Source: a virus (Duplodnaviria > Caudoviricetes). Taken from it: a stretch of 39,999 bases of DNA. This document shows positions 12,445 to 36,605 of this stretch, in pieces. Within the stretch, counting starts at the first letter, position 1, and each line of letters opens with the position of its first letter. A program made the translations under genes and the position numbers. Below the pieces are notes generated by a model, which had not been told where the DNA came from, did no database searches, and worked only from the letters and a program-made list of their open reading frames with translations. The stretch spans positions 1 to 39,999 of the IMG/VR virus record IMGVR_UViG_3300011338_000870. One strand, written 5' to 3'.

Positions 12445-12737
12445 TGGCTTACAGAATGGGTTTTTGTCCACAATGTGGCACTCAAATTATGACGCAGGAT
12501 ACAGCAAGGCAATGGCATATAAAGCCTAACTTGTATCGTCAGCTTGATCTTGTTTTTGGGCCTAATACTTTAGTTAATAAAGTACGAACTATGATTTGCT
12601 CAACATGTATTGAAGCCCCCGATTTAACTATTTTAATGGATTCAATTTTAAACAAAGATTCTCAAGCGACAAATGCTGATGCAAAATATATTATTGAAAA
12701 TAGTGGCATACCTATAAGCACTGAAAGGGTGGGATAA
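12444..12737 (+). CDS. Small zinc-ribbon protein
   Basis: CPQCG...CSTC; AGGAG RBS; TAATG coupling. Confidence 0.65.
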   Translation: MAYRMGFCPQCGTQIMTQDTARQWHIKPNLYRQLDLVFGPNTLVNKVRTMICSTCIEAPDLTILMDSILNKDSQATNADAKYIIENSGIPISTERVG

Positions 12738-18915: not shown

Positions 18916-20607
18916 ATGGCCTTTTGTTTAATAAAACCAGTGGCAGAGCAATTTAAGAGAATGATTGAGAGTGGTGAGTTGCGTGCGAGTGATCTTATTA
19001 AGATGACTTCTGAGCAAAGGCATGCTGCTTTTGCTAAAGTTGTTGGTGCTGAAAATGCAAAGCCTGTAAATTCTTTATTTGAAAGTAGATTGCTTTTAAA
19101 AAATCAAAAAGCCGCTTTTTTAAATTGGGCAGATAAAATTGTAGGAAACGCCAAAGCTCGCCCTGATATTATTTCTAAAATCAATAAACTAGACCGAGTA
19201 TTAAACCCAGCTGAAAAATCAGCATTTTTAAAAGATTTAGCAGCTCAAAAATTAGGGACAGATGTTTCTTTCGAGCAGGTTAAAAAAATTTCTGAACTTG
19301 CTTCACAAGTAAGAGCTTTTAAAGAAAGTGCTTTAGCTGGAAAAGACCGAGTAAAGTATGGCGAGAAGTTAGTAGAGTTTCATGATTATATGAATTCTTT
19401 AAAAGAAAGCAGAAATAAAATTTCTTTAAAAGATATTAAAAACGCTCCTGTCCAGTCTTTGGGAAAAGGGATTTCTAATTTAGGCGGATTAGCAAAGTCT
19501 TTAAAAGCGTCTTTAGATAACAGCGTTATCGGAAGACAAGGCCTTAAAACTTTATTTTCTCATCCTTCTGTTTGGCTCAAAAATTCAATTAAAAGTTTTG
19601 AAGACATGGTGAGGGCGTTTGGAGGGAAGGAAGTAGTCAGCAAAGTAAAAGCAGAAGTCCTTTCTAGGCCAAATGCTTTAAATGGTTTGTATGAAAAAGA
19701 GAAGCTTGCTTTAGGAAATATAGAAGAAGCTTACCCTACTAGCTTGCCTGAAAAAATTCCAGTCTTAGGAAGAGCTTTTAAAGCTTCTGAGGCTGCTTTT
19801 AATGCTTTCCAGCTTAGAACAAGAGCAGATGTTTTTGATAAGTTAGTTCAAATTGCAGATAAAACCGGTGGTGATATTAAAGGCATTGGGCAACTTGCTA
19901 ATTCTTTAACTGGCCGGGGGAATATTGGCAAATTTGAACATGCAGCCACAACTTTAAACAATCTTTTTTTCTCTCCAAGATTCCTTAAAAGTAATATTGA
20001 TTTTTTAACTGCTCATCGTTTTGATTCTGATATGGGTTCTTTTGCAAAAAAAAGAGCTGCAATAAATTTAGCAAAAACAATTGGTGGAATTGCTAGTATT
20101 TTGGCAATTTCTAATGCTGTGGCTCCCGGCTCTGTTGAAGTTGATCCTCGAAGTTCTAACTTTGGTAAAATTAAAATAGGTGACACTCGGTTTGATGTTT
20201 CTGGGGGCATGAGTTCTATTTTAACTTTAGCGGCACGTTTATTTTCTATGTCTACCAAAAGTAGCCTCTCTGGAAAAGTTACACCTTTAAATAGTGGCGG
20301 TTTTGGCTCTAGAACTGGTGTTGATGTTGTTGAAGATTTTATTGAAGGGAAGTTGGCTCCTATTGCTGGAGTTTTAAGAGATTATTTAAAAGGTCATGAT
20401 ATGTCTGGCCAAAAACCTACTTTAGCATCTACAGCAAATAATTTGCTAACACCTCTTCCCATTACAAACTATAATGAACTTAAAGATCATAAAAATTCAG
20501 CCCCAATGTTGGCCGCAATGATTGCAGACGCATTGGGTATTGGTACAAACACTTATTCAAAAGACGATTATAAGAAGAAAAAAACACTTAACAAAATAAA
20601 GGATTAA
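18916..20607 (+). CDS. Large helical ejection/internal virion protein
   Basis: 563 aa, basic and helical; last large gene before lysis, where podoviruses keep the largest ejection protein. Confidence 0.6.
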   Translation: MAFCLIKPVAEQFKRMIESGELRASDLIKMTSEQRHAAFAKVVGAENAKPVNSLFESRLLLKNQKAAFLNWADKIVGNAKARPDIISKINKLDRVLNPAEKSAFLKDLAAQKLGTDVSFEQVKKISELASQVRAFKESALAGKDRVKYGEKLVEFHDYMNSLKESRNKISLKDIKNAPVQSLGKGISNLGGLAKSLKASLDNSVIGRQGLKTLFSHPSVWLKNSIKSFEDMVRAFGGKEVVSKVKAEVLSRPNALNGLYEKEKLALGNIEEAYPTSLPEKIPVLGRAFKASEAAFNAFQLRTRADVFDKLVQIADKTGGDIKGIGQLANSLTGRGNIGKFEHAATTLNNLFFSPRFLKSNIDFLTAHRFDSDMGSFAKKRAAINLAKTIGGIASILAISNAVAPGSVEVDPRSSNFGKIKIGDTRFDVSGGMSSILTLAARLFSMSTKSSLSGKVTPLNSGGFGSRTGVDVVEDFIEGKLAPIAGVLRDYLKGHDMSGQKPTLASTANNLLTPLPITNYNELKDHKNSAPMLAAMIADALGIGTNTYSKDDYKKKKTLNKIKD

Positions 20608-20609
20608 TT

Positions 20610-20978
20610 ATGAAAATGGATATGGAAGACGAAGGTAAGCTAGGAAGAGTTAAAAAGTTAATGGAAATGATGAAAGCCATGCACGCAAGTGAAGACGGCG
20701 AAGAAGCTGGCAGCCCTCAATTAGGGAACGGAAGCAATCCTTTCGCTGGAGCTGAAGACGATGACATGAAGCTTTTAAAGCAAAAGATGATGGAAGACGA
20801 AAGTATGGAAGGCTCAGAAGGAGACGAAGAAAATGAATCCCCTGAATATCAAGCGTTAGAAGATAAAATGGGAACTGAAAAGCATGAAGGCCCTACTCAT
20901 CTGTTTGGCAAAAAGCCTCATGAAGGTTTAAAAATCATGATTGCCTTAGCTAATGCTCGCAAAGGTAACAGAGCTTAA
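20610..20978 (+). CDS. Acidic, Met/Glu-rich disordered protein
   Basis: AAGGA RBS; low-complexity acidic composition. Confidence 0.65.
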   Translation: MKMDMEDEGKLGRVKKLMEMMKAMHASEDGEEAGSPQLGNGSNPFAGAEDDDMKLLKQKMMEDESMEGSEGDEENESPEYQALEDKMGTEKHEGPTHLFGKKPHEGLKIMIALANARKGNRA

Positions 20979-21335
20979 ATGAGTGCTTTACTACAACAAC
21001 AATTTGCATTTTCCAGACTTCTGCCTAGGCTAATTGACGAAGCTCATCGCCTAGGCTTTGAAGTACAGTTTGGCGAGCTATGGCGCACTCCTGAGCAAGC
21101 AAGATGGAACGCGGCTCATGGTCTAGGAATTGTGAACTCTAATCACTGTAACCGTATAGCGGTTGATTTGAACCTATGGAAAGACGGGCATCTATCTGGT
21201 GACATAGATGATTATAGACCGCTTGCTGAATTCTGGAAGAGCTTGTCTAGGACAGAGGCAATTTGTGTCGCAGGAGTAGATTTTAAAAAGCCTGATATCT
21301 TTCATTTTAGTTTATTTTTTAATGGCATTAAATAA
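20979..21335 (+). CDS. Endolysin, M15 family zinc peptidase
   Basis: R(TPEQ)...SNH-x6-D...D..HF catalytic pattern. Confidence 0.9.
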   Translation: MSALLQQQFAFSRLLPRLIDEAHRLGFEVQFGELWRTPEQARWNAAHGLGIVNSNHCNRIAVDLNLWKDGHLSGDIDDYRPLAEFWKSLSRTEAICVAGVDFKKPDIFHFSLFFNGIK

Positions 21336-21380
21336 ACAAAGCCCTTACAATTATAGAAACAACAATTAGGGGGATGGGAT

Positions 21381-21587
21381 ATGTTAAAATCAGGGTTTAA
21401 AACTTCTGAATTTTTACTTACAATTTTATCTTTAGTTTATACTAACGTAACTAGCATTGCAGGTTTTCTTGATCCAAAAATTGCTGCCGTTTTCACTGCT
21501 ATTGTTAGCGGCGCTTATGTGATTTCAAGAGGAATTGCAAAGCAATCTGACGCTGCGTTATCTGATCCTCAAATGGATTCTAAATGA
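21381..21587 (+). CDS. Holin
   Basis: 68 aa, two TM segments, G.KTSEF and Y.ISRG.AK motifs; next to endolysin. Confidence 0.75.
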   Translation: MLKSGFKTSEFLLTILSLVYTNVTSIAGFLDPKIAAVFTAIVSGAYVISRGIAKQSDAALSDPQMDSK

Positions 21588-21817
21588 ACAAAATTTGGCC
21601 CTTTGTAAAGTTCTGTCTTTATAGCTTTGCTTATCTTTTTGGACACAGAAATGCTGTAATTGAGATGGAAGCTAAATCAAATAAGTCAGCATTAGATGAG
21701 GCCACAACTGTTTTAGATAAAAGAGAAAAGGTGAGGGCTAAATATGACAAGATACGTAATTCTATTCCTAATAGTTGGCCTGATAAGTTGCGGAAGACAA
21801 ATAAAGATTCAAAGTAA
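21584..21817 (+). CDS. i-spanin (Rz-like)
   Basis: N-terminal hydrophobic segment plus coiled coil; overlapped by a lipoprotein gene. Confidence 0.65.
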   Translation: MNKIWPFVKFCLYSFAYLFGHRNAVIEMEAKSNKSALDEATTVLDKREKVRAKYDKIRNSIPNSWPDKLRKTNKDSK

Positions 21818-21956
21818 CCCACTAGCAGCTCCACAATGCGCTGCAAGCGTGCAAAAGTTTAAAGACATGCTTTCGGAGTCTCAGCCTACCTTGGTAGAGC
21901 CTACCCCTTGGGAGCTTGTAGATTTGGTTGAATGTTTGGAATTATTATCTAATTGA
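21744..21956 (+). CDS. o-spanin (Rz1-like) lipoprotein
   Basis: Signal peptide with LISC lipobox; starts inside the i-spanin gene with GAGGG RBS. Confidence 0.7.
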   Translation: MTRYVILFLIVGLISCGRQIKIQSNPLAAPQCAASVQKFKDMLSESQPTLVEPTPWELVDLVECLELLSN

Positions 21957-22138
21957 TCTTCCATGGGTCTACATCTTTTTTCTCTAGCTCTTCTATTATG
22001 CCCTGATTTAATCTCTCCATAAAAAGGAGTTGGGTTATATTTCCCACCTAAGTGTTCAGCACAGTAATATTTATCGTTTACTTTATTGTAAGCAGGTCTT
22101 GGACAAGTTTGAGTTCTTTCGCAATTCATTGGTAGCAT
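21881..22138 (-). CDS. Hypothetical Cys/His protein
   Basis: C-x4-C...YCAEH motif; overlaps the o-spanin end convergently and lies beyond a terminator, so uncertain. Confidence 0.4.
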   Translation of the reverse strand: MLPMNCERTQTCPRPAYNKVNDKYYCAEHLGGKYNPTPFYGEIKSGHNRRAREKRCRPMEDQLDNNSKHSTKSTSSQGVGSTKVG

Positions 22139-22145
22139 AACATTT

Positions 22146-22222
22146 AAAACAAAACCCTGAGCCAGTAGAAAGGGTTAGTAACGCCCAGCCCAGGGTATGC
22201 TTTTTACCCTCTTTAAGGTAAA
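22146..22222 (-). ncRNA. Candidate ~75-nt small RNA / intrinsic terminator with anti-RBS loop
   Basis: Minus strand: TATAAT at 22229-22234, hairpin TTTACCTT/AGGGTAAA, then stem ACCCTGGGC/GCTCAGGGT (22154-22196) plus TTTGTTTT; loop carries CTAACCCTTTCTA. Confidence 0.6.
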
Positions 22223-22225
22223 TCT

Positions 22226-22549
22226 TTAATTATATTCATTTTTAAAGCTGATTAAAGCACCTTCGGGTAAAATGCCCGCTTGTACTATTTCACATTCTGA
22301 CAGGCGCTTCTCTAGGATAAATACTTCTGAATTATTCCACAAGCCTAAAGAGTCAGAAATTGAATCTAAAAACCCTTTTTTTTGAACTGTAGAGACAGTT
22401 TCCAAGATAGTAAAAGCAAGCATAGAAGCTTGTTTAGCATTTTCAGAAGAATATTTTATTAATGCTTTTAGTCTTTCTAGAAACAAATCTAAATCATCGG
22501 AATCTTTAATTAGCAAATCTGAAAAGAATTCTTGCTTAGAACATGACAT
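22226..22549 (-). CDS. Hypothetical protein
   Basis: ORF with GAAAGGGTTA RBS motif. Confidence 0.7.
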   Translation of the reverse strand: MSCSKQEFFSDLLIKDSDDLDLFLERLKALIKYSSENAKQASMLAFTILETVSTVQKKGFLDSISDSLGLWNNSEVFILEKRLSECEIVQAGILPEGALISFKNEYN

Positions 22550-22559
22550 GTTAACCCTT

Positions 22560-22844
22560 TCATTTTTTTACAAACATAAATACTATTTGTACAAGTATGC
22601 CTATCAGACCAATTATAATTGAAAAGTAAAGTTTGTTTACTTTAGCAAGTAAGCTTTCTCTCCAATTATATGACTCCTTAAGAGTCATTTTGTTTTCATC
22701 TTTGAGATTATCAATCTCTTTAAGTATTTTATCAAAACTAGCATCCCAGCGCTCTGAATGAGAATCAAAACGTTCTTCTAGAATATTGATCTTTGCATCA
22801 TGCTCAATAGTCATATGGATAAAACTCTTTTCTGTTGGGGGCAT
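22560..22844 (-). CDS. Coiled-coil protein with C-terminal TM helix
   Basis: Heptad-like N-terminal part and LYFSIIIGLIGILVQIVFMFV tail. Confidence 0.65.
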   Translation of the reverse strand: MPPTEKSFIHMTIEHDAKINILEERFDSHSERWDASFDKILKEIDNLKDENKMTLKESYNWRESLLAKVNKLYFSIIIGLIGILVQIVFMFVKK

Positions 22845-22889
22845 ACAATAATAATATCATATGCTTATACATCAAACAAATAAGAATAG

Positions 22890-22952
22890 TTACTTTTTAA
22901 AAAAAGTTAGAATGGTTTTAGCAAGAATAACTAACAATACTTTAAAGTCCAT
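22890..22952 (-). CDS. Possible 20-aa amphipathic peptide
   Basis: MDFKVLLVILAKTILTFFKK; ATG immediately follows the stop of the upstream ORF. Confidence 0.35.
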   Translation of the reverse strand: MDFKVLLVILAKTILTFFKK

Positions 22953-23129
22953 TTAAGGATCGCTAGAAACTTTAGGCATATTTTTAAGCATCATTGCATG
23001 AGCATCTAAATGAAGCTGATGAAGATCTTTTCTAGGCCCTCTTTTCTTACCTTTAGGCCAGCCTTTTTTATTTGAGACAAATTCTAATTTTATATCTTTT
23101 CTATTTTTACTTCCTTTTGTTCTAGCCAT
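22953..23129 (-). CDS. 58-aa basic protein with AT-hook-like motifs (not in the ORF track)
   Basis: MARTKGSKNRK...KKGWPKGKKRGPRK...; perfect TAGAAAGGGTTAGA RBS. Confidence 0.75.
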   Translation of the reverse strand: MARTKGSKNRKDIKLEFVSNKKGWPKGKKRGPRKDLHQLHLDAHAMMLKNMPKVSSDP

Positions 23130-23141
23130 ATCTAACCCTTT

Positions 23142-24338
23142 CTAGGTTTGAGTGTTTGTCGCATAATGCGAAAATACTTTAAAATAATCTAATGTCTTTA
23201 AATTGAATGTAGAAGGTTTTGCTTTGGAGGAGAGTTCTTCCCAGAGGGCTATAAATCTAGGAATGATTACAGCCCAATCAAAATGCTTAATCTGGAGTAA
23301 GCATTGGATAGCCATGTTCTCTCTAATTTCTTTGTTTTCAATTAACCATAAAGTTTTATTTATAAACTCTTCTTTATCCACTTCTACACATGCTGAAAAT
23401 TGCATTTGATTTATTCCATCATATTGAAAAGGTAAAATCTCTCCCTTAGGCTTAAGAGTAGTAGGAATAAGAAAACCAGTGACACCCTCTTGAACAATAT
23501 CCCGATATCCACTCCAATCATAAGCAACGATGGGCAGCCCTGAAGCCATAGCTTCAAGTAAGGAAAGCCCAAATGTTTCTTGAGTGTTATTAGAAGGAGC
23601 TAGGAAGATATCTGCTTCGCTTAGAAGCTCTCTTTTTCTTTCTTCTGAAATATTAATTTCTATTTTAACATAAATATTTAATTCTTTAGCTTTTTCCTGA
23701 ACATGACCAGAGTATCGTACGTAACCAGTAGAATCCGCACCAGCTAGTGTAAGGTGTATTTTTTTTGTTGTTAGTTTAGAAATCTCTTTCACCATCTCTA
23801 AAAGAGGAAATAAATCTACCTTCGTATATTTACAAAATCTTCCTAAGTAGAGAAGTCGAATCACATCATCTTTTTTAGGCGCTTTAAAGTAAGAGCTAGA
23901 GTCTATGCCTAGGGGGATGATGGGAAGGATTATAGATTCGCTCATAGAATGGCTTGAAAGCATCTTTCTAACAGCTTTTTGAGCAGCATTACTTGTGCAA
24001 ATCAACGTATCTGATTCGGTAATCCCTGCAATCATATTCATGTACATCCACTCCATAAATGGAGCATGCCCAAGTGTGTGCGTAATACCAGTCACAGCCA
24101 TTGGCTTAGGGTTATAAGCCTTTAAAGAGAGTGCCCTATACATGTCTGGCCCTGGATAATGAAGAACATCTATAGGATTCTCTTTTAGAAAAGTAGGGAT
24201 ATCCACCAGACTAGGGTCTAGAATAGAGACCCTATGCTCTCCAGCATATTTCACTAAAGCATCTAAAAAGGTCTTATTGGCTATATGCCTACCCATCAGC
24301 TTTAGCGGTTCTTTGTATATTAATACTCCGATGTGCAT
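23142..24338 (-). CDS. Glycosyltransferase, GT4 family (GT-B fold)
   Basis: LYLGR, ETFGLSLLEAMASGLPIV (E-x7-E), G..DIV..GVTGFL motifs. Confidence 0.93.
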   Translation of the reverse strand: MHIGVLIYKEPLKLMGRHIANKTFLDALVKYAGEHRVSILDPSLVDIPTFLKENPIDVLHYPGPDMYRALSLKAYNPKPMAVTGITHTLGHAPFMEWMYMNMIAGITESDTLICTSNAAQKAVRKMLSSHSMSESIILPIIPLGIDSSSYFKAPKKDDVIRLLYLGRFCKYTKVDLFPLLEMVKEISKLTTKKIHLTLAGADSTGYVRYSGHVQEKAKELNIYVKIEINISEERKRELLSEADIFLAPSNNTQETFGLSLLEAMASGLPIVAYDWSGYRDIVQEGVTGFLIPTTLKPKGEILPFQYDGINQMQFSACVEVDKEEFINKTLWLIENKEIRENMAIQCLLQIKHFDWAVIIPRFIALWEELSSKAKPSTFNLKTLDYFKVFSHYATNTQT

Positions 24339-24431
24339 ATTCTCCCCTAGAGCGTAAATCAGGCAATCCCTGATAGCTTAAGTTTTAACAGTTTAATAAG
24401 AAGAGAGTCCTTATTTATCCCCTCCCCCTAA

Positions 24432-24462
24432 AGCCCTGGATTAGTCCGGGGCTCTTTTCTTC
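24432..24462. terminator. Intrinsic terminator-like hairpin
   Basis: AGCCCTGGA-TTAG-TCCGGGGCT followed by CTTTTCTT on the + strand and TT on the - strand. Confidence 0.65.
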
Positions 24463-24716
24463 TACCTACTAAATAATCTATTGAGAGGTCTTGCTGTGCA
24501 AACAGCAATCCCAACTCCCGGACTAACGACGCTACCCACTGGAGAAGCAAAATAAGCGCTTAAATGTTCATTAGCATTACAAAAAGATTCTGGAGGAGGA
24601 TAAGTAGCAGCCGGTGATTCATTACAAACTAAATGGCTTTCACCTGGCAGCAAAGCTATGCGCCCAGCAGTATCTGTAAAAAATTCGTGATACACTCTGT
24701 AATTAATACAAGTCAT
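24462..24716 (-). CDS. Hypothetical protein
   Basis: ORF with AAGGA RBS just downstream of the tRNA. Confidence 0.55.
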   Translation of the reverse strand: MTCINYRVYHEFFTDTAGRIALLPGESHLVCNESPAATYPPPESFCNANEHLSAYFASPVGSVVSPGVGIAVCTARPLNRLFSR

Positions 24717-24738
24717 TATTAGTCCTTTTTAATTGTTA

Positions 24739-24810
24739 CGGCCCCGCTTGGAATCGAACCAAGAATATCAGTTTTGGAGACTGACGTGATGCCATTTCCA
24801 CTACAGGGCC
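24739..24810 (-). tRNA. trnW: tRNA-Trp (CCA), 3' CCA not encoded
   Basis: GGCCCTG/CGGGGCC acceptor, TCAGT-CTCCAAA-ACTGA anticodon arm, CTTGG-TTCGATT-CCAAG T arm, discriminator G. Confidence 0.93.
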
Positions 24811-24818
24811 TATCCATT

Positions 24819-25004
24819 CTAGGATGTAATGTCCTCAGCCTCGGAAGGCGGAGGGCTAGAATCTTCTTTGTAACCACACCAAGCACATTGCCCAGAAGCT
24901 ACTGCTATTGAGTAGTTTTCTTTGTTGCATTTATAACAATGTACTAAATATAATTTCCCTTGCTCATCTCTAAAGTTAGGTTGCATATCTTGTATATTAT
25001 CCAT
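24819..25004 (-). CDS. Small zinc-ribbon protein
   Basis: CYKC...CAWCG. Confidence 0.7.
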   Translation of the reverse strand: MDNIQDMQPNFRDEQGKLYLVHCYKCNKENYSIAVASGQCAWCGYKEDSSPPPSEAEDITS

Positions 25005-25403
25005 TTAAACCTCTTTATTTTCTTCTAATACTTGTAAGATTTTCTTTAAAACTTCTTTAGCCTTCTCTTTGGTGCGGAAGACACGGTTTTGTTCTAGAAG
25101 CCTTTGATCAGGTTCAAAGTTCCACCAATTTGTTGAAGTAACCTGAAGCATAAAATCACTAGACATTATTGTGTAATATTCTTCCCCCTCTTCAGGCAAC
25201 CAACGATCGGGGAGAGGTTCAAAGCAATCAGGGTAGTCTATAATTTGAAAGCCCATATATGAAAAGCCTGAGTCAGTTATAATTTGATCTTTCTTAAATC
25301 CCGGACAATCAATCTTACATCTATACTTTTTCATTGGTTTGCTTTCTGGTTTTATAGAATTTATTTTATAAAGTTCAGTAATAAATTGAGAGCCAAATAT
25401 CAT
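25005..25403 (-). CDS. Hypothetical phage protein
   Basis: W.PEEGEEYY...N.FRTKE.A pattern common in phage hypotheticals. Confidence 0.7.
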   Translation of the reverse strand: MIFGSQFITELYKINSIKPESKPMKKYRCKIDCPGFKKDQIITDSGFSYMGFQIIDYPDCFEPLPDRWLPEEGEEYYTIMSSDFMLQVTSTNWWNFEPDQRLLEQNRVFRTKEKAKEVLKKILQVLEENKEV

Positions 25404-25549
25404 TTCCTCACCCCATTACACGCCATCAGATTGTTTTCGAGCATGGCGATTTTGTTTCCATACGTTAGCTTTCCTTGCCAAAATCCCAAAGCAAAGCCTA
25501 TAAATAAGCAAATCGACATAGCGCAAAATAATATTGTATCTGCCTTCAT
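25400..25549 (-). CDS. 49-aa membrane protein (not in the ORF track)
   Basis: MKADTILFCAMSICLFIGFALGFWQGK...; ATGA overlaps on both sides. Confidence 0.65.
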   Translation of the reverse strand: MKADTILFCAMSICLFIGFALGFWQGKLTYGNKIAMLENNLMACNGVRK

Positions 25550-25758
25550 TCCCCATCCCCTTCATTCAAGATTTTATCGATTCTCTTAAGATGAGCTGAA
25601 TAAGAAACCCATACTGTACTAGAGTTTTTAAGATTTATAAAAGCTTGTAGTTCTCTATTAATTTTAATAAGTTTATCTTTCTCTTCAGAACATTGAGAGT
25701 TAGAAAAGCAAAATTTTTTCTTCTCAATCTCATCCAAAAATTCATCGAGTGTTTTCAT
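25546..25758 (-). CDS. Hypothetical protein
   Basis: Coupled ORF (ATGA overlaps). Confidence 0.65.
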   Translation of the reverse strand: MKTLDEFLDEIEKKKFCFSNSQCSEEKDKLIKINRELQAFINLKNSSTVWVSYSAHLKRIDKILNEGDGE

Positions 25759-26123
25759 TTCTCCCCTATCCCCTCATCTGCTGCTTTAATTAAGGCGTCT
25801 GCGAGAGAAAGAGCAGTTTCCGAAACAATTAAAGCTGTGTCTACAGTGTGTTTTTTAGAGGCCATATCTATATTATACATCAACTGATGATTTGAAATTA
25901 TACCATTCATAGCTGCCTTAGCAAACTCATCCCTCCTCGCCTTCTGAATCATCTCATCGAGCCATGGAGTGCCGGATTCAGGGACTTTGAGGTGAATGGC
26001 TGCGTATTCTTGTAGTCGCATCCCTTCCCATTCTTGCATGGTTACAGAGCCATCTATTCTTTCATGTCTGAAAGTTACTGGGAAAGCAGGTTCTGCTTTT
26101 ATATCTTTTGATTCATTCGACAT
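25755..26123 (-). CDS. Hypothetical phage protein (PAFP...GM.L..Y.A family)
   Basis: Motifs PAFP, GMRLQEYAA, RDEFAKAAM, ADALI; start re-assigned to ATG 26123. Confidence 0.7.
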   Translation of the reverse strand: MSNESKDIKAEPAFPVTFRHERIDGSVTMQEWEGMRLQEYAAIHLKVPESGTPWLDEMIQKARRDEFAKAAMNGIISNHQLMYNIDMASKKHTVDTALIVSETALSLADALIKAADEGIGEK

Positions 26124-26125
26124 GG

Positions 26126-26278
26126 TTATTCCTTCCTCTCCCATACTTTGCCGCAGGAGCATTCTTTTTTATACGCACCTTTACCATCACCTTTATGATA
26201 TTCCGTTTTATACGGATGCCCAAAGTTCAGAATTGCGCAGAGGATTTGTTTAAGTAGGATTTGTTTAAGTTTTCTCAT
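26126..26278 (-). CDS. 50-aa Cys/His protein with 5-aa duplication (not in the ORF track)
   Basis: MRKLKQILLKQILCAILNFGH...ECSCGK; AAGGGTAGA RBS. Confidence 0.6.
   Translation of the reverse strand: MRKLKQILLKQILCAILNFGHPYKTEYHKGDGKGAYKKECSCGKVWERKE
26241..26270. repeat. Perfect 15-bp tandem duplication
   Basis: AGGATTTGTTTAAGT x2. Confidence 0.9.
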
Positions 26279-26454
26279 TCTCTACCCTTAGTTTTAGTAA
26301 TTTTTGTTGTATTACAATTTAATTATTTATAAACAAGACATTCCTCTTGAATAACCGACTTATCAAAAGCAATAATATCTGGAATTAATATTGAGGGTTG
26401 ATAATGAGGTCGACTCCAATTATTATCACCACATTTTGAACATTTTTCATCCAT
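26275..26454 (-). pseudogene. Zinc-ribbon gene interrupted by in-frame TAA
   Basis: MDEKCSKCG...ECLVYK*LNCNTTKITKTKGRE*; TAA at 26323-26325; the distal stop overlaps the next ATG. Confidence 0.55.
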
Positions 26455-26511
26455 CCCTATTCTCCTTTGCTTTATGGTTGTGTTCCCAACTTCTTATTCT
26501 TTGATCAGTTG

Positions 26512-26925
26512 TTAGCCTTCCATCGCCAGCTTGATCGCCCTGCGCACCTTCTCAAAATCGCCACGCGAAAACAGACAACCTCCGAACTCATCGTCCCGGC
26601 AATACATTTCGTTGTCCAACCAGCGCAACACCTCCAGCATTTCAGGGGCAGCGGCAATCAATTTTGCGTTGGCCTCGTGTTCTTCCTTCGTAATGCTTCG
26701 CGGGTCGCCTTTTCCACAATCGAAATAGTTAACCATCGCAACATGCTTGCAGCCGGATGAAATAGCGGTTTTCACGTTCACATCTTCAATCCGCCATGGT
26801 GCATTGCTGTGTACCGGGTAATCTTTACCACTGTAGGGTGTTTTCCCGTCCGTTATAATTGTTGGCGCTTCACTGTCTTTGCAAACTGTTCCACGGTAAG
26901 TGTTCCCGTCTCCATAACTATTCAT
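26512..26925 (-). CDS. Hypothetical phage protein (ANAKLIAAAPE family)
   Basis: APW...EANAKLIAAAPEML motif. Confidence 0.75.
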   Translation of the reverse strand: MNSYGDGNTYRGTVCKDSEAPTIITDGKTPYSGKDYPVHSNAPWRIEDVNVKTAISSGCKHVAMVNYFDCGKGDPRSITKEEHEANAKLIAAAPEMLEVLRWLDNEMYCRDDEFGGCLFSRGDFEKVRRAIKLAMEG

Positions 26926-27136
26926 TATGTACCTCCACTTCCTCTGCCATAATCTTCAGAAACTCTTCAAAGTTATATGCCACCTTATAATTTTCACCAT
27001 CCCTCGTGGTTATGTGCAGCGTATGATTTGATCCACACGCCACAGCCACAGAAACGATATGGTCTATACGCATACAAATTGAGTGCGTTTCGGTGTAGAT
27101 CATTACAAACCCTTTTGGGATCTTCGGCTCACTCAT
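26918..27136 (-). CDS. Hypothetical protein
   Basis: Coupled ORF with GGAGG RBS. Confidence 0.7.
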   Translation of the reverse strand: MSEPKIPKGFVMIYTETHSICMRIDHIVSVAVACGSNHTLHITTRDGENYKVAYNFEEFLKIMAEEVEVHNE

Positions 27137-27564
27137 AAACCCTCCTTATCAAGCCCATCCTGCACAAATTTAATAATCGCCTCTTCCGCCTTCTTGTCCC
27201 GGTCAATATAAAAACGGTACAGCAATTCTTCTGCTTTCAATGCCCGCTGGTACATATCCTCAGCGTGGGCTTTTGCGTGTGCTGCCGAACGATCCGCATC
27301 GATAAACTTTCCCAGCGGTTTCCATTCCATAGGCATTTTTGAAAACGGGTTCCATGCGTGCGGCTTCCATTGCAGTGTCCCGCCACATTGCGAGCACATC
27401 ACACAGGGGTCAATCACAACCTTTCCGTCCTCGTCTACGATTGCGATCTGGTAAACCCATCGGCCATTGTTGGCTTTCGTGCGTATTACAATTTCATCTC
27501 CTGTGTATTTCGCCAACGGGAAACGAGCATCGTCAATGCTTATCCATCCGTTTTTATCTGACAT
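27133..27564 (-). CDS. Hypothetical phage protein (DUF551-like WIS start)
   Basis: GWISIDDA.FP...HAW.P pattern; GGAGG RBS. Confidence 0.65.
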   Translation of the reverse strand: MSDKNGWISIDDARFPLAKYTGDEIVIRTKANNGRWVYQIAIVDEDGKVVIDPCVMCSQCGGTLQWKPHAWNPFSKMPMEWKPLGKFIDADRSAAHAKAHAEDMYQRALKAEELLYRFYIDRDKKAEEAIIKFVQDGLDKEGL

Positions 27565-27746
27565 AAATCCTCCAAAAATAGGCTAACAAGTCGTTTCACT
27601 CGGACTGGCCAAAAGCGGCCAGCCGGTGAACTCAGTCGATCTATCCACATTTCGTCTTTATCTGGATTCAAAGAAAGCCATACCTTCTTCTTTTCCTGAT
27701 AATTACGAAACCACCTATTTCTTTTTCTTTGTCGTCCTGTTTTCAT
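27540..27746 (-). CDS. Hypothetical basic protein
   Basis: Coupled ORF. Confidence 0.55.
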   Translation of the reverse strand: MKTGRQRKRNRWFRNYQEKKKVWLSLNPDKDEMWIDRLSSPAGRFWPVRVKRLVSLFLEDLCQIKTDG

Positions 27747-27943
27747 TTAGACCATTCGTTCCATAAGCTAATCATATACTCCGCGATTTCTTTGCGTTCT
27801 TCTGGGGTGACTTTATATTCATCAACTTCTCTTCCATCTTCTACGTAAATAGTTTCTTTGTTCCAACCAGGATGAATAAAACCAATACAAGAATCAAAAA
27901 CCCTTCCACTATCTAATACATATTTTATTTCATCATACTTCAT
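27743..27943 (-). CDS. Hypothetical protein
   Basis: Coupled ORF with GAGG RBS. Confidence 0.7.
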   Translation of the reverse strand: MKYDEIKYVLDSGRVFDSCIGFIHPGWNKETIYVEDGREVDEYKVTPEERKEIAEYMISLWNEWSK

Positions 27944-28313
27944 CTGAACCTCTTTTAGATTTTAAGATATTTTTGAGCATTTCATTTTCTCTTAAAATTA
28001 TACTGATTTTTTTCACGTCTGGTTCTTTTACTTCTACGGATTCAAGCGCATTGTCTATATTTGGATGAGCTCTTAAGCCTTCTGTGAAGACTGTGCTTTC
28101 ATAATAATTTATTTTAGAAAAAGCTGAATCAATAATATTGTTTTGAGAATTAATTTGAGACTCTAATTCACGAATAGTTTTCACCAAAGCAGCAACTCTT
28201 TCTGGGCATCTAGCAATAAAATCCCAATCTCTACTATTAAGAGGAGCTCCACTTACCCAATGAATCTGCTTTAACTCTTCTTCTATTTTGTCTATGTCTA
28301 GTGGTTCGGTCAT
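27933..28313 (-). CDS. Hypothetical phage protein (Ea22-like FIA..P..V.AL motif)
   Basis: DWDFIARCPERVAALV; GGAGG RBS. Confidence 0.65.
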   Translation of the reverse strand: MTEPLDIDKIEEELKQIHWVSGAPLNSRDWDFIARCPERVAALVKTIRELESQINSQNNIIDSAFSKINYYESTVFTEGLRAHPNIDNALESVEVKEPDVKKISIILRENEMLKNILKSKRGSDEV

Positions 28314-28570
28314 TCTGCCTCCGCTGCTTTGATTGCTTGTTCTAAAATAGAATAAGGTTCATCTCCTAATATTTCAGGAATAGAGTTATAGCTTAAAGCT
28401 TTTAAAGCTTCTTTACACGCTTCTAAGAGTGGATAAAAATGACTCGCTTGCTTGCAGAATATAGAAGCATCTCTAAAGTCTTCAATAAGTTCTTTATCTT
28501 TAAAGAACTGAAGAAATTCTCCACAGGGATGCGCTCTAAATTTATAAATATGTTTCTTTTCTTGCGTCAT
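28310..28570 (-). CDS. Hypothetical phage protein
   Basis: LLEACK...AIKAAE motif; AAGGAG RBS. Confidence 0.7.
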   Translation of the reverse strand: MTQEKKHIYKFRAHPCGEFLQFFKDKELIEDFRDASIFCKQASHFYPLLEACKEALKALSYNSIPEILGDEPYSILEQAIKAAEAE

Positions 28571-28582
28571 AAATTCTCCTTA

Positions 28583-28668
28583 TGCACGACCCACGAATCG
28601 AACGTGGACAATAACTAACAGAACGTCTTCTGATATAGCCATAGACTCTACCATTAAGCTAGTCGTGC
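28583..28668 (-). ncRNA. tRNA-like RNA with extended hairpin in place of the anticodon loop
   Basis: GCACGAC/GTCGTGC-A acceptor, GCTT-AATGGTA-GAGT D arm, CCACG-TTCGATT-CGTGG T arm; middle ATGGCTA/TAGTTAT plus CAGAA-GACG-TTCTG. Confidence 0.8.
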
Positions 28669-28683
28669 TAAATTCACATCCTT

Positions 28684-28817
28684 TGAGCGGGCCAGAATTG
28701 CACTGGCTAGCTAAGTCAGCCGTGCTGGCTACCACGACCGGATTCTAGCAAATTGATTATGGTTCAAGCTTAAACTCTGCCCACGTAACTACGTTTCGCT
28801 GTCAACGCCGCCGCTCG
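28684..28817 (-). ncRNA. ~134-nt tRNA-like RNA with a two-hairpin insert in place of the anticodon loop
   Basis: GAGCGG/CCGCTC acceptor, GCGT/ACGT D-like stem, AGTTA/TAGCT stem, GCCAG-TGCAATT-CTGGC T arm; flanks 28673-28829 also pair. Confidence 0.7.
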
Positions 28818-28841
28818 CAGGAATGTGAAAGATTAATCTTA

Positions 28842-29153
28842 TTATTCTTCGTCTTCTTCTTGATCTTCTGAAGGATCATAATCAGGATTTGTTTTATAAA
28901 CGTTCAATATCTCTTTATCAGAAACACCTGGAATTTTTGGCAAATAAGCAATATCATGTTCTCCTTCACAAAAAGAACTCGAATCATCTTCAAAAATTAT
29001 TCTAAATAATTGGAAACATGGGCTTTCTGAATCAAATTCAGTTGAAATATAGCCCTGCACTTCTTTTATTTTTTTACCAGCAAGTTTCTCAAGATTAATC
29101 CAATTTCCACCTGAAGAATCAAATTCAGCTTTTACATCATTGTGACTTTTCAT
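28842..29153 (-). CDS. Hypothetical protein with acidic tail
   Basis: ORF with GGAGAGGG RBS; EGEHD motif. Confidence 0.75.
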   Translation of the reverse strand: MKSHNDVKAEFDSSGGNWINLEKLAGKKIKEVQGYISTEFDSESPCFQLFRIIFEDDSSSFCEGEHDIAYLPKIPGVSDKEILNVYKTNPDYDPSEDQEEDEE

Positions 29154-29177
29154 ACCCTCTCCTCTTCCGTACTTCCT

Positions 29178-29345
29178 TTAAATTTTATCCATTCGATCAT
29201 GATTAACTTTCTTTTCTGCTTCTTCAAAAGCAGAGGTTAACAATTCATATTCTTCATCGGTTAAAGTTTTAAAAATTTGTTCCATTACTGTTTTTAAAGG
29301 AACTCCAACTTTTGAGTTTTTAAAATAAACTAAATTTTTATCCAT
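29178..29345 (-). CDS. 55-aa hypothetical protein (not in the ORF track)
   Basis: MDKNLVYFKNSKVGVPLK...; fills the gap and overlaps the upstream stop. Confidence 0.55.
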   Translation of the reverse strand: MDKNLVYFKNSKVGVPLKTVMEQIFKTLTDEEYELLTSAFEEAEKKVNHDRMDKI

Positions 29346-29769
29346 CTATTTTAATCCATAGATCAGCTTCGATATCTGATTGTTCATTACTAATCTTGGA
29401 GTCTATGCCAAATGAATTAAACTTTACATTCTTCAGCACCACTCGTAAGGGCTTGTCGGTTTGAAGCTTGCCTAAGCTACGTTCATTAATTAATTGTTTT
29501 AAGAAATCTGAAGAGAATAAGCCTTCAGGCGTTTTTTCTTTAAGTGAATTAATAACACAAGGACTCATCAATACTTCTTGCTTGGGTTGTGTGTCGTAGG
29601 GGAGCCAGTCATTTATTTCACTATCATGAGCATCACATTCTCCCAATTCTGTTTTTCCAACAGAAACCCCCATGCTAGTGATAGCTAATAAAGTAAAAAC
29701 ACGTCGACTTTTACTATCCCAAACTCCTCGCTTAAACTTCTGCCCAATATGTTCTTTATTTAGTTTCAT
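29338..29769 (-). CDS. Hypothetical protein
   Basis: Coupled ORF. Confidence 0.65.
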   Translation of the reverse strand: MKLNKEHIGQKFKRGVWDSKSRRVFTLLAITSMGVSVGKTELGECDAHDSEINDWLPYDTQPKQEVLMSPCVINSLKEKTPEGLFSSDFLKQLINERSLGKLQTDKPLRVVLKNVKFNSFGIDSKISNEQSDIEADLWIKIDG

Positions 29770-29963
29770 TTTATAATTTCCTGATATTTTTCAAAACTTA
29801 TTATCGCCTCAAAATACAGCTTAAGTTCTTTTATTTTAATAACACGTCTACGCCTATAGATATCCTCTAATTCCCATGTGTCCGCACCATAATCGGTACG
29901 TATAATGTAGAAGATTTTACCATTTCTATTGTCTCGTAATCTTGGAGCACGCTCCAATTTCAT
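29766..29963 (-). CDS. Hypothetical protein
   Basis: GAGGTG RBS, coupled. Confidence 0.65.
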   Translation of the reverse strand: MKLERAPRLRDNRNGKIFYIIRTDYGADTWELEDIYRRRRVIKIKELKLYFEAIISFEKYQEIIK

Positions 29964-30094
29964 CTTCTCACCTCAGTTAAAAGCTTATGAACAATATCGT
30001 AAGATTTCCTTGCAGAAGCTAGTGCCTTATGAGCAGGGAACAAAGGAAACATCTTACGGATAGAGAGATAGAGGCGTTTAAGATCTTGATTCAT
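29960..30094 (-). CDS. 44-aa hypothetical protein (not in the ORF track)
   Basis: MNQDLKRLYLSIRKMFP...; ATGA overlaps at both ends. Confidence 0.6.
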   Translation of the reverse strand: MNQDLKRLYLSIRKMFPLFPAHKALASARKSYDIVHKLLTEVRR

Positions 30095-30348
30095 ATCTTA
30101 TGCTCCACAAAGATATTAGGTTCATCAGGATTCGAAGTGTCCTCTTCTTCACACTCCCAAATTTCAAAACAATCAGGATGAAAAGCAACATCTCGGCTGT
30201 TATCAGCAGGATCTTCTGCAAGAGTAAACCTGTCATAAAGATCCAAGTCTAATTTGCAGTAGAAGCAAACTTGTTCTAAGTTTTGATATTGTGTGGCTGT
30301 TAAGCCTTCTGGATATTCTTCGCGTGGTGTGTCTCTATAGCAGTTCAT
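30091..30348 (-). CDS. Small zinc-finger protein
   Basis: CFYC...FHPDC; AGAAAGGGTTAGA RBS. Confidence 0.7.
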   Translation of the reverse strand: MNCYRDTPREEYPEGLTATQYQNLEQVCFYCKLDLDLYDRFTLAEDPADNSRDVAFHPDCFEIWECEEEDTSNPDEPNIFVEHKI

Positions 30349-30384
30349 TTTCTAACCCTTTCTTAAAATGAATTGTTTATTTAT

Positions 30385-30543
30385 TTAATATATTTCACTA
30401 GCTTTTATTGCTTTTTTACGTCCGCCTAATTTTCCATTAGCTTGAGAAGCTTTAGTTTTGGCTTTAGATTTAACTTGGCCACCTTTTTTACCGGCTTCAC
30501 TTAAGAAGTTCTTAATTTGTTTGGAGATTGTTTCTTTCTTCAT
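30385..30543 (-). CDS. 52-aa basic KGG-type putative DNA-binding protein (not in the ORF track)
   Basis: MKKETISKQIKNFLSEAGKKGGQVKSKAKTKASQANGKLGGRKK...; directly downstream of a promoter. Confidence 0.75.
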   Translation of the reverse strand: MKKETISKQIKNFLSEAGKKGGQVKSKAKTKASQANGKLGGRKKAIKASEIY

Positions 30544-30552
30544 TTTATAATC

Positions 30553-30581
30553 TTTCTAGCTAAGCAGCTTTGGTTTGTCAA
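30553..30581 (-). promoter_or_regulatory. Sigma70-type promoter with 19-bp operator
   Basis: TTGACA-17 bp-TAGAAA; contains AACCAAAGCTGCTTAGCTA (30557-30575). Confidence 0.65.
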
Positions 30582-30944
30582 CTAATTAAAATAATTATTT
30601 ATACAATTCTCAAATTCTTCGAAAGAATAACAGATTTTAGTTTTGTATCCTCTTGCTTCCATCAATATCATAAACTCTTGTTGTTCTTTAGTGGGTTTAT
30701 TGTAGCCGGTTTTCATTTCTATCCATAGGCCATGAAACTCTTTAATAGGCTCAGGGATAAACAAATCGTACACACCTGCGCGAACCCCTTCTCTCTTCAG
30801 TTTAATGGCAACAAGAAGGTTTCTGAGCCCTCCATTGCCTATTGCAAAGATGACTCTCTTGGGAAATTGCATTTTAAACCAATTAACACACTGGCATTGG
30901 AGTTGATGCTCTGAAATTTTAGGCTTTGATGTTTTTGTTTTCAT
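30582..30944 (-). CDS. VRR-NUC domain nuclease (Holliday-junction-resolvase-like)
   Basis: SEHQLQ...NGG.R...GV.AGV.DL...IEMK....PT.EQ. Confidence 0.88.
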   Translation of the reverse strand: MKTKTSKPKISEHQLQCQCVNWFKMQFPKRVIFAIGNGGLRNLLVAIKLKREGVRAGVYDLFIPEPIKEFHGLWIEMKTGYNKPTKEQQEFMILMEARGYKTKICYSFEEFENCINNYFN

Positions 30945-31266
30945 TTTCTTTCCATTTTATCCATGCGAGGCAGATTGCTTCAGGTGCTGTCGTTCCAATA
31001 GAACCTTCATCATATTGATCTGAAATGGCATCTTGAATTAAATCTCCAGTATTCTTGAACACATGATAATAAACTTTAAACTTAACATCTTTTCGATCTA
31101 TATGCTTGAGATATGCTCCAGGCATCTCTTCAAACAATTCCCAAGCATCTAAAATTTTTAAACTCCAATAAGGAACTAGCTTATCAGCAGCTAAACCATA
31201 TTGTGTTTTATGATAATCAATTCCTTTTAATTTTGCTATTTGTTCATCAAGTTTAGTATGAATCAT
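30919..31266 (-). CDS. Phage ABA-sandwich-like protein
   Basis: P.WS..I.DAW.L...TAPEAICLA pattern. Confidence 0.7.
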   Translation of the reverse strand: MIHTKLDEQIAKLKGIDYHKTQYGLAADKLVPYWSLKILDAWELFEEMPGAYLKHIDRKDVKFKVYYHVFKNTGDLIQDAISDQYDEGSIGTTAPEAICLAWIKWKENENKNIKA

Positions 31267-31655
31267 CTCTTCTCCCCAAACACAGGCTTCTTTAACTCAC
31301 TAAAGAGCTGACTATCAATAATGGCTGTCCCTTCAATAATCTTTACACACCGAAGCACATTAAAAAGATGCCCCACTTCATAATCAAGCAAACTAGCTTC
31401 AGGCCTCCAGCCAGCTTTCACTAACTTCTCTTTTACCCCTTCAAAGTAATCATGGAGCCAAGATGGATTTTTATTGTTAGTCTCACAAAGACGAAACATC
31501 TCTTCGTTCCCGCAATAGCGTATAGGGCCTTCAGGGGTATCGTGACGTAAAAGGATAGGCTCCTCTATAGATCTGCGCACAGTGAGGCGTTTAAGCTGAT
31601 CCATTGGCATTTCTAGGATAGTGTCGCCTTTGAGTTTATATAGTTTCCAGGTCAT
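31263..31655 (-). CDS. Hypothetical protein
   Basis: Coupled ORF. Confidence 0.65.
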   Translation of the reverse strand: MTWKLYKLKGDTILEMPMDQLKRLTVRRSIEEPILLRHDTPEGPIRYCGNEEMFRLCETNNKNPSWLHDYFEGVKEKLVKAGWRPEASLLDYEVGHLFNVLRCVKIIEGTAIIDSQLFSELKKPVFGEKR

Positions 31656-31882
31656 AAATCTTCAATCCCCACTATCTTTTCACTAGTCACGCTAGATTTA
31701 GGCTCAGGGGCTCCCATAAGAGCTTCCCTATAAGTATTTTGTAAAACATGGTCATTTGGGTATAATGCCAACATCTCTTCATGCCATTTAATTTTAAAAG
31801 CCCTTTGGTCACATTCAGGTGTTGAAAGGAGCTTTTGTACAAATTGACAGTAGTCTTTGCCTGAAGGGTGAGATTGACTCAC
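31652..31882 (-). CDS. Hypothetical protein
   Basis: GAGGAG RBS, GTG start, coupled. Confidence 0.65.
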   Translation of the reverse strand: MSQSHPSGKDYCQFVQKLLSTPECDQRAFKIKWHEEMLALYPNDHVLQNTYREALMGAPEPKSSVTSEKIVGIEDL

Positions 31883-32064
31883 GATACATTCTCCTCTTTA
31901 ATCCATCCTTTAGCTAAAAGCTCATTTAAACAAGTGACGCTCTTATCAATACAGCTCTTGCAATAGCCTTCTAAGAGGTCTAAATCTTTAATCCTGGCTA
32001 GGCACATCTTGCAGTTATAATAATTATACTTAAGCTTTTCTTCATTTGGCTCTAGTTCATTCAT
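31879..32064 (-). CDS. Small zinc-finger protein
   Basis: CKMC...GYCKSC; TAGAAAGGGT RBS. Confidence 0.7.
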   Translation of the reverse strand: MNELEPNEEKLKYNYYNCKMCLARIKDLDLLEGYCKSCIDKSVTCLNELLAKGWIKEENVS

Positions 32065-32089
32065 AATTTACCCTTTCTAAATTGTTTTA

Positions 32090-32680
32090 AATTTTGAGCG
32101 CAAAAAACCTTCGCATCTGAGTAGAGTAGTTAACCCAGAAATAATTAACTCGGAATATGTTGCAGCTCTGGTCCTTAAGCTAAGCGTACAATTGTATATT
32201 ATCTGGCATGTGTTCACTTATTATCGCGGGCACCACCCCGCTGTAGTCCTGCATCTCTAATTGGCCCTCATTGAAGGGGCGCACCAGCTTGTCCCGTATC
32301 TCCCCCTGCTGCAGAGGATTAAGGCGCCTGGAAGCTACAGTTTGGAATAACTACCCGTAAGACTACCGAGCACTGTATGAAGACGGCGCACAATTGTAGT
32401 TAACCTAAGCTATCTCCCTCTAAATATCTCTCCATCTTTTAAATGAGGGATTAGGAGTGAGCGCGTTTAAAGTGGGGCGCACAAGATCACTTAAAGGATT
32501 AGCTGGAATGGAATCGTGTGATCCCAAGCAAAGGTATGGGTTTAAACATTACTGTTTAAATATTCCATCCCAGCAAATACTTTAGTTGTTCATTTCTATA
32601 TTGGATTCCCCTTGCTATTGACTTCACACGATTGAAGTATTGAAGTTTTGTTGATGGTAAAATCTTAATTAAGATTTAAA
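32090..32680. ncRNA. Large structured non-coding region (candidate ncRNA and/or replication origin)
   Basis: No ORF of 60 aa or more in any frame; visibly GC-richer than flanks; many nested inverted repeats and short direct repeats. Confidence 0.55.
32660..32677. promoter_or_regulatory. Perfect 18-bp palindrome
   Basis: AAATCTTAATTAAGATTT. Confidence 0.6.
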
Positions 32681-32683
32681 TAA

Positions 32684-33503: not shown

Positions 33504-33571
33504 AAAACCCTTTCTGAAAAATAGTTGGGCGAAATTATTGCGCACAAATCACCCAACTTAATTAATTGAAT

Positions 33572-34078: not shown

Positions 34079-34146
34079 ATATTTTCTCCTGTTTAAATGT
34101 GCTCTAAGAGCGGTTAATAAATTGATTTTATTATGTATTTTTGTTA

Positions 34147-35010: not shown

Positions 35011-35150
35011 TGGAAACCACCATTTCTTCTTCATGACATTCTTGAAGATCAGCAATAAGCCTATCAAGTTTATTATTAAGAGCATCACATGACTTTTTGT
35101 AATTCAAATAGTGAAAGTCTAACTCTTCCTGCATCGTTCGACATTCAACT

Positions 35151-35348: not shown

Positions 35349-35370
35349 TTTAACCCTTTCTTGTTTGTTA

Positions 35371-36011: not shown

Positions 36012-36034
36012 ATTCTAACCCTTTCTGATTATTG

Positions 36035-36148: not shown

Positions 36149-36197
36149 GGTATGTGCCCTTTTAATTTGAAAAATTACATTTTCTATTATTGTTTAT

Positions 36198-36368: not shown

Positions 36369-36392
36369 TTTCTAACCCCTTCTTTTTATTGT

Positions 36393-36530: not shown

Positions 36531-36575
36531 TTTTTAACCCTTTCATTCATCCCCGCAACATTGCGTTGATAATCA

Positions 36576-36605
36576 GTTGTAAACCAAAACAGCTTAGGTT
36601 GTCAA
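36576..36605 (-). promoter_or_regulatory. Major leftward early promoter with 19-bp operator
   Basis: TTGACA-18 bp-TACAAC; pseudo-palindrome AACCTAAGCTGTTTTGGTT (36582-36600). Confidence 0.7.

Follow-up and report, generated by a model that had tools for sequence, protein, structure and literature searches.

The start-associated sequences (SAS) of the Cluster K mycobacteriophages are tags of which, in four Cluster K1 phages, a single copy is reversed. Pope et al. (2011), in the accessible portion of their report, leave open both the function of the SAS and whether they are bound by a protein or by an RNA (PMC3203893). The c4 RNA of P1 and P7 is, according to the accessible parts of two reports, approximately 77 nt long and cut from a longer transcript. 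Folded into three stems with two loops, it undergoes processing by RNase P, and its target is the antirepressor message; the loops pair at the ribosome site and block translation (PMC5320573, PMC12197685). B11 (6C) is a mycobacterial sRNA whose open pyrimidine-rich loops repress many mRNAs through their G-rich ribosome sites, as described in the accessible part of its report (10.1101/2022.10.27.514065). The locus presented here lies in the window, i.e. the whole stretch of 39,999 nucleotides of phage DNA that was analysed. Its layout is of the SAS type: a tag in one orientation precedes starts on the non-structural arm, and a single reverse copy (22166-22178) is placed off starts.

The window is an entire phage record, its two ends sharing an overlap of ~190 nt. 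The rightward genes match portal, major head, tail, endolysin and terminase genes, and the leftward arm (21881-36530) contains small ORFs, an exonuclease, a VRR-NUC protein, a glycosyltransferase and two tRNAs. From this gene layout, the leftward arm would be the early one. No match to a repressor or an integrase was obtained among the 68 ORFs, of which 54 are without a PHROG match, so a repressor could escape notice. The region 20600-24400 is covered at 0.84-0.93 in four river metagenome runs from a single study, with long identical pieces in the one run examined; none of the 18 runs listed is an RNA library with this region.

No cultured close relative pointing to the host was found. An alphaproteobacterial host was considered and set aside, the sole pointer being a 60% capsid relative in an uncultured Alphaproteobacteria bin, which is too weak. 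Two overlapping ORFs at 21584-21956 (plus strand) follow the endolysin and a holin-like ORF, and the second has a lipobox-like stretch. By inspection, and without a family match, the pair is spanin-like and would point to a Gram-negative host. The minus strand carries, before leftward genes, TTGACA with a similar spacer at 36600-36605 and 30576-30581, as does one of the capsid relatives (G002; L100 ~1060 and L101 ~12070); these sites probably represent an early promoter type. The same strand encodes a tRNA-Trp(CCA) at 24739-24810, the only one of the two tRNAs that passes Rfam, and a tRNA-Ile with the rare TAT anticodon at 28583-28668. The family 4 glycosyltransferase (23142-24338, minus strand) also matches the GT4-conflict profile and possibly serves in DNA modification or counter-defence.

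A 12-nt tag stands directly before the ATG of nine leftward genes, all of them on the leftward arm. The loop 13-mer of the hairpin described below is the exact complement of the 13 nt before 23129 and of the 12 nt before 30348 and 36011. It is also a near complement, with one or two mismatches in 12, of the tags before 22549, 32064, 33503, 35348, 36368 and 36530. The motif search thus bore out the first-pass annotation, which had listed the same three perfect and six imperfect sites. Run exhaustively over both strands with at most two mismatches, the search returned 13 matches, 11 on the minus and two on the plus strand, against a shuffled mean of 4.93 (one of 100 shuffles reaches 13). Nine of the minus-strand matches precede the tagged starts, and those at 30781 and 35119 do not. 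The plus-strand matches are the exact one at 22167 and another, with two mismatches, at 21724. The earlier statement that the loop holds the only reverse copy is therefore correct at zero or one mismatch and fails at two. The exact 9-mer core occurs seven times on the minus strand, with an ATG following within 22 nt in every case, and the plus strand has a single copy; 0.14-0.27 occurrences are expected per strand. From composition, the 13-mer is expected 0.0004-0.001 times on the plus strand, for a word that was picked after the fact.

Among the minus-strand 19-mers, the loop is the only region complementary to at least eight of the 69 leaders. Hairpins with a stem of at least 8 bp and a loop of 9-26 nt were also scanned for nine exact bases of complementarity to leaders. 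Of the 35 such hairpins in the window, this one matches eight leaders and the next best two, and the 872 hairpins in 11 other phage records match at most three (likewise at most three for the 906 obtained when the other hairpins of the window are included). The scan missed the hairpin of G013, a member of the unrelated family discussed below; it is therefore strict and can overlook true cases.

The first eight bases of the tag pair at the far end of the 16S rRNA tail that is listed for several species and the last four do not, with the reservation that the tail of the host may differ (PMC6288834, accessible part). As its last four bases stay unpaired with this tail, the tag would be a Shine-Dalgarno sequence extended by a private part, and the loop a partial imitation of the 16S tail. 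The nine tagged ORFs gave no PHROG or Pfam match, and no candidate tag-binding protein was recognised in the searches of these profiles.

Three further observations concern the surroundings of the tags. A 10-bp hairpin with a U-rich tail (33523-33558, minus strand) lies directly before the tag of 33503 and is a possible attenuator. Two near-identical ORF ends of ~30 nt (35371-35400 and 36030-36060, minus strand) precede the tags of 35348 and 36011, which suggests a cassette duplication. The structural-arm gene at 12738 has a partial tag (12722-12737, plus strand), ranks ninth among the 69 leaders in raw duplex energy and falls to -8.1 kcal/mol after opening.

Table 1. Features of the hairpin locus and of the tagged leaders (coordinates in the window)
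Feature	Coordinates	Strand	Remarks
Main RNA hairpin	22154..22196	-	12-bp stem (3 G·U), 19-nt loop
Anti-tag 13-mer in loop	22166..22178	-	predicted fold and exact complementarity
U tract after stem	22146..22154	-	8 U in 9 nt (sequence)
Small 7-bp hairpin 5' of main hairpin	22204..22221	-	predicted fold
TATAAT	22229..22234	-	forms the final two sense codons of ORF 22226-22549; lacks a -35; weak as a promoter candidate
107-aa ORF, function unassigned	22226..22549	-	hairpins form its 3' flank; own start with weaker tag copy
Promoter-like site (10/12) before 107-aa ORF	22612..22639	-	possible transcript source, lead only
85-aa ORF, starting 8 nt past U tract	21881..22138	-	no Shine-Dalgarno-like leader
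Tag before 22549	22551..22562	-	2 mismatches; net pairing -10.4 kcal/mol
Tag before 23129	23132..23144	-	13/13 complement; net -15.2 kcal/mol
Tag before 30348	30352..30363	-	exact; net -15.5 kcal/mol
Tag before 32064	32067..32078	-	2 mismatches; net -11.5 kcal/mol
Tag before in-frame ATG 33503	33504..33515	-	2 mismatches; net -15.7 kcal/mol
Tag before 35348	35350..35361	-	1 mismatch; net -18.0 kcal/mol
Tag before 36011	36015..36026	-	exact; net -16.0 kcal/mol
Tag before 36368	36372..36383	-	1 mismatch, pairs as G·U; net -18.1 kcal/mol
Tag before 36530, first gene of leftward arm	36534..36545	-	2 mismatches; net -11.1 kcal/mol

The reverse copy lies at the distal end of the leftward arm, where the elements named in the first-pass annotation are all present on the minus strand in the order TATAAT, small hairpin, large hairpin and U tract. 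The large stem-loop had been described with a 9-bp stem and a 25-nt loop. The fold gives 12 bp, with 22185-22196 paired to 22154-22165 by nine Watson-Crick and three G·U pairs, and leaves 19 nt in the loop (22166-22184). The predicted pair probabilities are 0.94-1.0 for ten pairs and ~0.65 for both loop-closing pairs. The anti-tag 13-mer is predicted to be open, with a mean unpaired probability of 0.85 and an opening cost of 0.6 kcal/mol, and the loop bases beyond it (22179-22184) can, in the predicted duplexes, extend to the target start codon. The fold is stronger than that of shuffled sequences on the minus strand (z of -3.19, reached by 0 of 200 shuffles, and -2.67, reached by 2 of 200), whereas on the plus strand it is no better than shuffles (z of -1.03 and -1.67). 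The three non-Watson-Crick pairs of the stem are all G·U on the minus strand and A·C mismatches on the plus strand, which favours the minus strand as the one bearing the RNA. The Rfam search of the window gave just a tRNA at the gathering score, along with one chance snoRNA match (E 3.5).

Compared with a canonical intrinsic terminator, with its GC-rich stem, loop of 3-8 nt and U tract, the stem and the U tract are present and the loop has 19 nt; the terminator scan allows loops of 3-8 nt only and did not list this hairpin. The U tract is likely a 3' end or a partial terminator. The 85-aa ORF downstream is probably a real gene: besides itself, its search returned one good homologue (E 1.5e-8), which is 45% identical to it from residue 1 onwards, and a diverged relative retains the start region of the ORF along with the hairpin. 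With a probable gene right after the U tract, termination there cannot be complete.

On the 5' side, TATAAT was rejected as a promoter of its own, since it has no -35, lies inside codons and is absent from the 48 promoter-like sites of the scan, which found 52 in shuffles. For the same reasons, an RNA derived from a 3' end is likelier than a separate gene. The annotation had proposed either a ~75-nt trans-acting RNA or the stable 3' end of the early transcript; the second form fits better and a 75-nt gene starting at TATAAT is not supported. The homologue search with the 107-aa ORF returned only the ORF itself, and its Atlas matches stayed under 0.9.

The predicted loop-tag duplexes cover the tag and reach the AUG, and the loop has, by prediction, the exposed seed complementary to ribosome sites that is expected of a trans-acting sRNA blocking them. 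When the 69 leaders are ranked by duplex energy, the nine tagged leaders hold nine of the top ten ranks, in a ranking that is partly circular by construction and ignores the strain of a long helix within a loop. After the opening of the target is accounted for, six tagged leaders lie at -15.2 to -18.1 kcal/mol and three at -10.4 to -11.5 kcal/mol. These three overlap in energy with the best untagged leaders (-10.7 and -10.1 kcal/mol) and have no advantage over them.

Conservation of the locus was followed in relatives of several kinds. A wastewater contig of 2,908 bp (X13) holds a diverged copy of the module, in which the loop and the 3' arm (22146-22185 of the window) are identical at 36 of 40 positions, whereas its coding pieces agree at 111 of 136 and 162 of 200 (~81%). 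The part of the 107-aa ORF at 22317-22452 has 82% identity there. The alignment leaves out 22186-22316. Read gap-free, the 5' arm of X13 shows four changes, three of which still pair with the 3' arm of the window; the change at 22192 pairs only if 22158 has changed too. Of the four differences within 22146-22185, one could be placed (22154) and breaks the lowest stem pair, and the three unplaced ones may fall in the loop. The 3' arm of the small hairpin resembles the tag, and 12 nt of that arm are also kept in X13. Support from the window's own lineage is thus partial and comes from one relative. Among the sequencing runs, X8 is identical over 167 nt and X14 covers 167 nt with two differences, the placed one lying outside the stems; the marine runs X9 and X11, both of small share, did not cover the hairpin, and X17 gave nothing.

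The two closest capsid relatives (93% and 90%; G001, a 28-kb fragment, and G002, of 40.6 kb) resemble the window in the structural arm, at 65-75% DNA identity, and this likeness does not extend to the leftward arm. The 9-mer core is absent from the first and occurs once in the second, and neither has a comparable hairpin. The module is therefore not a general feature of the lineage. Ten further capsid relatives (of G001-G012) have 0-3 short core matches each, and no private tag with a matching hairpin was found in the eight capsid-relative records and L243 that were scanned.

Homologues of the hairpin were also sought by pattern. A 15-mer pattern returned 97 viral loci, about the chance level and none with hairpin and tag set. 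Further patterns gave 20 viral, three viral and four metagenome loci, all judged chance, and blastn against 50,697 phage records returned only 20-35-nt pieces with E of 0.4 or worse. The tag scan gave 84 loci, of which L125 and L176 belong to an unrelated and abundant phage family that bears a transglycosylase. Two other finds are recorded for their own sake. An unrelated viral fragment of 4,814 bp (L119) has, before consecutive small genes, six copies of a tag that is almost that of the window and no reverse copy within the fragment, and a 36.6-kb viral contig (L209:5800-10040) carries seven spaced GC-rich hairpin repeats with a GAAA-type loop.

The tag scan led to the transglycosylase-bearing family through G013. 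In this record a loop that has the core of the window's loop lies behind the last gene of a leftward module with two tagged starts (L223:12462-12506, minus strand). The anchor gene of the family is the transglycosylase. Of the 62 records of cultured phages that match it, 60 are of Streptomyces phages, so the host of the family is likely actinobacterial. Among the best 80 of 582 related loci (L244-L323), 48 have a loop with the same core, 17 a different loop and 15 neither; some of these last 15 break off shortly behind the anchor gene. An alignment of 35 distinct hairpins has 85.7% of its cells paired, and seven of the eight stem pairs change on both sides; the co-variation score is 0.661, compared with 0.239 for shuffled and at most 0.233 for slid alignments, kinship inflating the shuffle test. 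This co-variation, with its G·U pairs, fixes the RNA strand in that family.

Loop and tag also change together in this family. After removal of duplicates (7 and 3) and of loci with less than 2.5 kb upstream (3 and 4), 38 loci with the first loop and ten with the second were compared. The first tag precedes a same-strand upstream ATG in 32 of the 38 first-loop loci and in none of the ten second-loop loci, whereas the second tag does so in seven of ten second-loop and seven of 38 first-loop loci; with the word reversed as a control, the counts were 10 of 38 and 1 of 10. This split may rest on a single lineage event, in which case nominal p values overstate it. Per whole genome, the tag pattern has 1-4 matches in four genomes of the first type and none in one of the second. 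All 41 distinct loop hairpins of the family are followed by a second strong hairpin and a U-rich tail, by a loose test without a control. No published description of this family's loop hairpin was found. The window hairpin scores 12 bits against the covariance model of the family (R1), over positions 14-28 of 45 and with E 0.85, and G013 scores 33.7 bits. The window and the family therefore share the same logic and word, while the R1 match, confined to the loop, does not establish a common RNA family.

Our preferred explanation, held with moderate confidence, is that the locus gives rise to a 3'-terminal antisense RNA that acts in trans and blocks the ribosome sites of the tagged genes. The hairpin would be the stable 3' end of a leftward transcript, from which a 3' piece of perhaps 50-80 nt would be released or on which such a piece would be protected. 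The open loop of the hairpin would pair with the likely ribosome-binding sites of the nine leftward genes and lower their translation as a group. Being made from the far end of the same arm, the RNA would, from its position, build up late and subsequently exert a delayed negative feedback on the first genes of the arm. The repression of several targets from loop to ribosome site by B11 and the loop-to-ribosome-site pairing of c4 support a reading in trans. The occlusion of a set of ribosome sites, as the annotation had put it, remains a prediction that agrees with the energetics, the strand asymmetry, the conservation in one relative and the co-variation of stem and of loop with tag in the unrelated family. 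The annotation went further and saw an RNA-only early shut-off switch in a phage with no recognisable CI repressor; such a role is conjectural, as a repressor may hide among the 54 ORFs that lack a PHROG match and the nearest virion relatives are devoid of the module.

One prediction that counts against action in trans concerns transcripts starting at 23200. In the equilibrium fold of 23200-22140, the anti-tag pairs with the 23129 site in cis (p = 0.8), and this site, 1 kb upstream, is also the single perfect 13-nt match. The loop could hence fold back on its own message, at 23129 or 22549, and silence full-length transcripts, the other seven matches being a by-product of a shared ribosome site. 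The unrelated family, where only 1-3 tagged genes stand on the same strand in the few kb upstream, would agree with this. On the other hand, a transcript from the nearer promoter-like site (22605-22140) keeps the hairpin intact and its pairing with the 22549 site is ~0, and the best net pairings are those of the distant genes 35348 and 36368. Moreover, the local hairpin would be the first structure to form as the RNA is made, and fold predictions spanning 1 kb are unreliable. We consider such a cis fold-back unlikely.

The probable 85-aa gene begins 8 nt past the U tract, lacks its own ribosome site and has its start kept next to the hairpin in X13, which raises the question of whether the loop is a receiver instead. 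Tagged early mRNAs would then bind it and alter the read-through at the U tract, thereby controlling the 85-aa gene. The second hairpin and U-rich tail behind each of the 41 family loops fit a 3'-terminal RNA better than such a sensor, and binding would have to outpace termination within seconds; this makes an attenuator quite improbable.

The hairpin could also be a relic or chance product without function, a ribosome site together with its start codon having been copied in inverted orientation into the loop of an ordinary terminator. An inverted duplicate would account for the ACG that stands 2 nt past the plus-strand copy, at the place taken by ATG in the 23129 site. Such a relic would also suit the lack of the hairpin in the closest virion relatives and its presence in just one diverged relative. 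The composition expectation given above, a conservation that exceeds that of the flanking coding DNA, and the recurrence of the layout in the unrelated family and in the Cluster K phage Angelica speak against it, and we give this explanation a low probability.

Least probable of all is a tag bound by a protein on mRNA or DNA, with the plus-strand copy as a decoy in late read-through RNA (the alternative offered in the first-pass annotation) or as an operator: that copy is indeed oriented to the late genes as the others are to the leftward genes, and the accessible part of the SAS report leaves room for protein as well as RNA binding (PMC3203893), but the G·U asymmetry weakens the decoy, the plus-strand stem having three A·C mismatches and a fold no better than shuffles, a DNA site requires neither stem nor U tract, the family co-variation fixes the strand there, and no candidate binding protein was recognised.

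The classes of phage genes are usually timed by proteins. Tentatively, and with somewhat less than an even chance of being right, we propose that unrelated phage groups run regulons by RNA only: the ribosome sites of a gene class would be barcoded by a private Shine-Dalgarno extension, and one hairpin loop would imitate the 16S tail plus the anti-barcode, giving a built-in shut-off timer. The window would be one instance and the reverse SAS of Cluster K another. If true, a single short RNA that reaches a whole gene class by way of a common tag at the ribosome sites would offer a compact substitute for proteins, the start-associated sequences left open in 2011 would acquire a testable function, with the same layout available in a culturable phage, and tag and loop would make a simple programmable part for translational control.

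In a literature search whose coverage leaves most subscription journals outside, no paper on an anti-tag loop RNA of such a layout was found. The window RNA belongs to neither c4 nor B11. Unlike c4, it has one complementary loop and two hairpins, and its tag is common to nine scattered genes; the Rfam C4 model gave no match in the window. B11 is host-encoded and uses two loops of 6-7 C against generic G-tract targets, as its accessible description has it, whereas the seed of the window RNA is a private tag of 12-13 nt. The unrelated family resembles the window in its near-identical loop core and tag and in the place of the loop, at the far end of a leftward small-gene module on the same strand; it differs in its 8-bp stem, its 13-nt loop, the separate terminator behind and the 1-4 tag matches per genome.

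A further counterpart is the SAS of Cluster K. In the accessible part of the report, this is an asymmetric 13-bp tag at the position of the ribosome site of many non-structural genes, in a single orientation, with one part that pairs with 16S rRNA and one that is private, and with one reverse copy away from starts (PMC3203893). The word is different, as the window tag does not match the Cluster K 13-bp consensus in direct comparison, and the upstream inverted repeats (ESAS) were not seen in the window. The same accessible part assigns no function and does not describe a hairpin (PMC3203893). In Angelica, which has 17 forward SAS and one reverse within 31.6 kb, the reverse copy (L327:30635-30647) lies on the transcribed strand at the tip of a long predicted hairpin, inside the annotated gene 92 and with no U tract seen, unlike that of the window. 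The feature of the window is real and would, by its predicted function, be a small RNA that blocks ribosome-binding sites, SAS-like in its layout.
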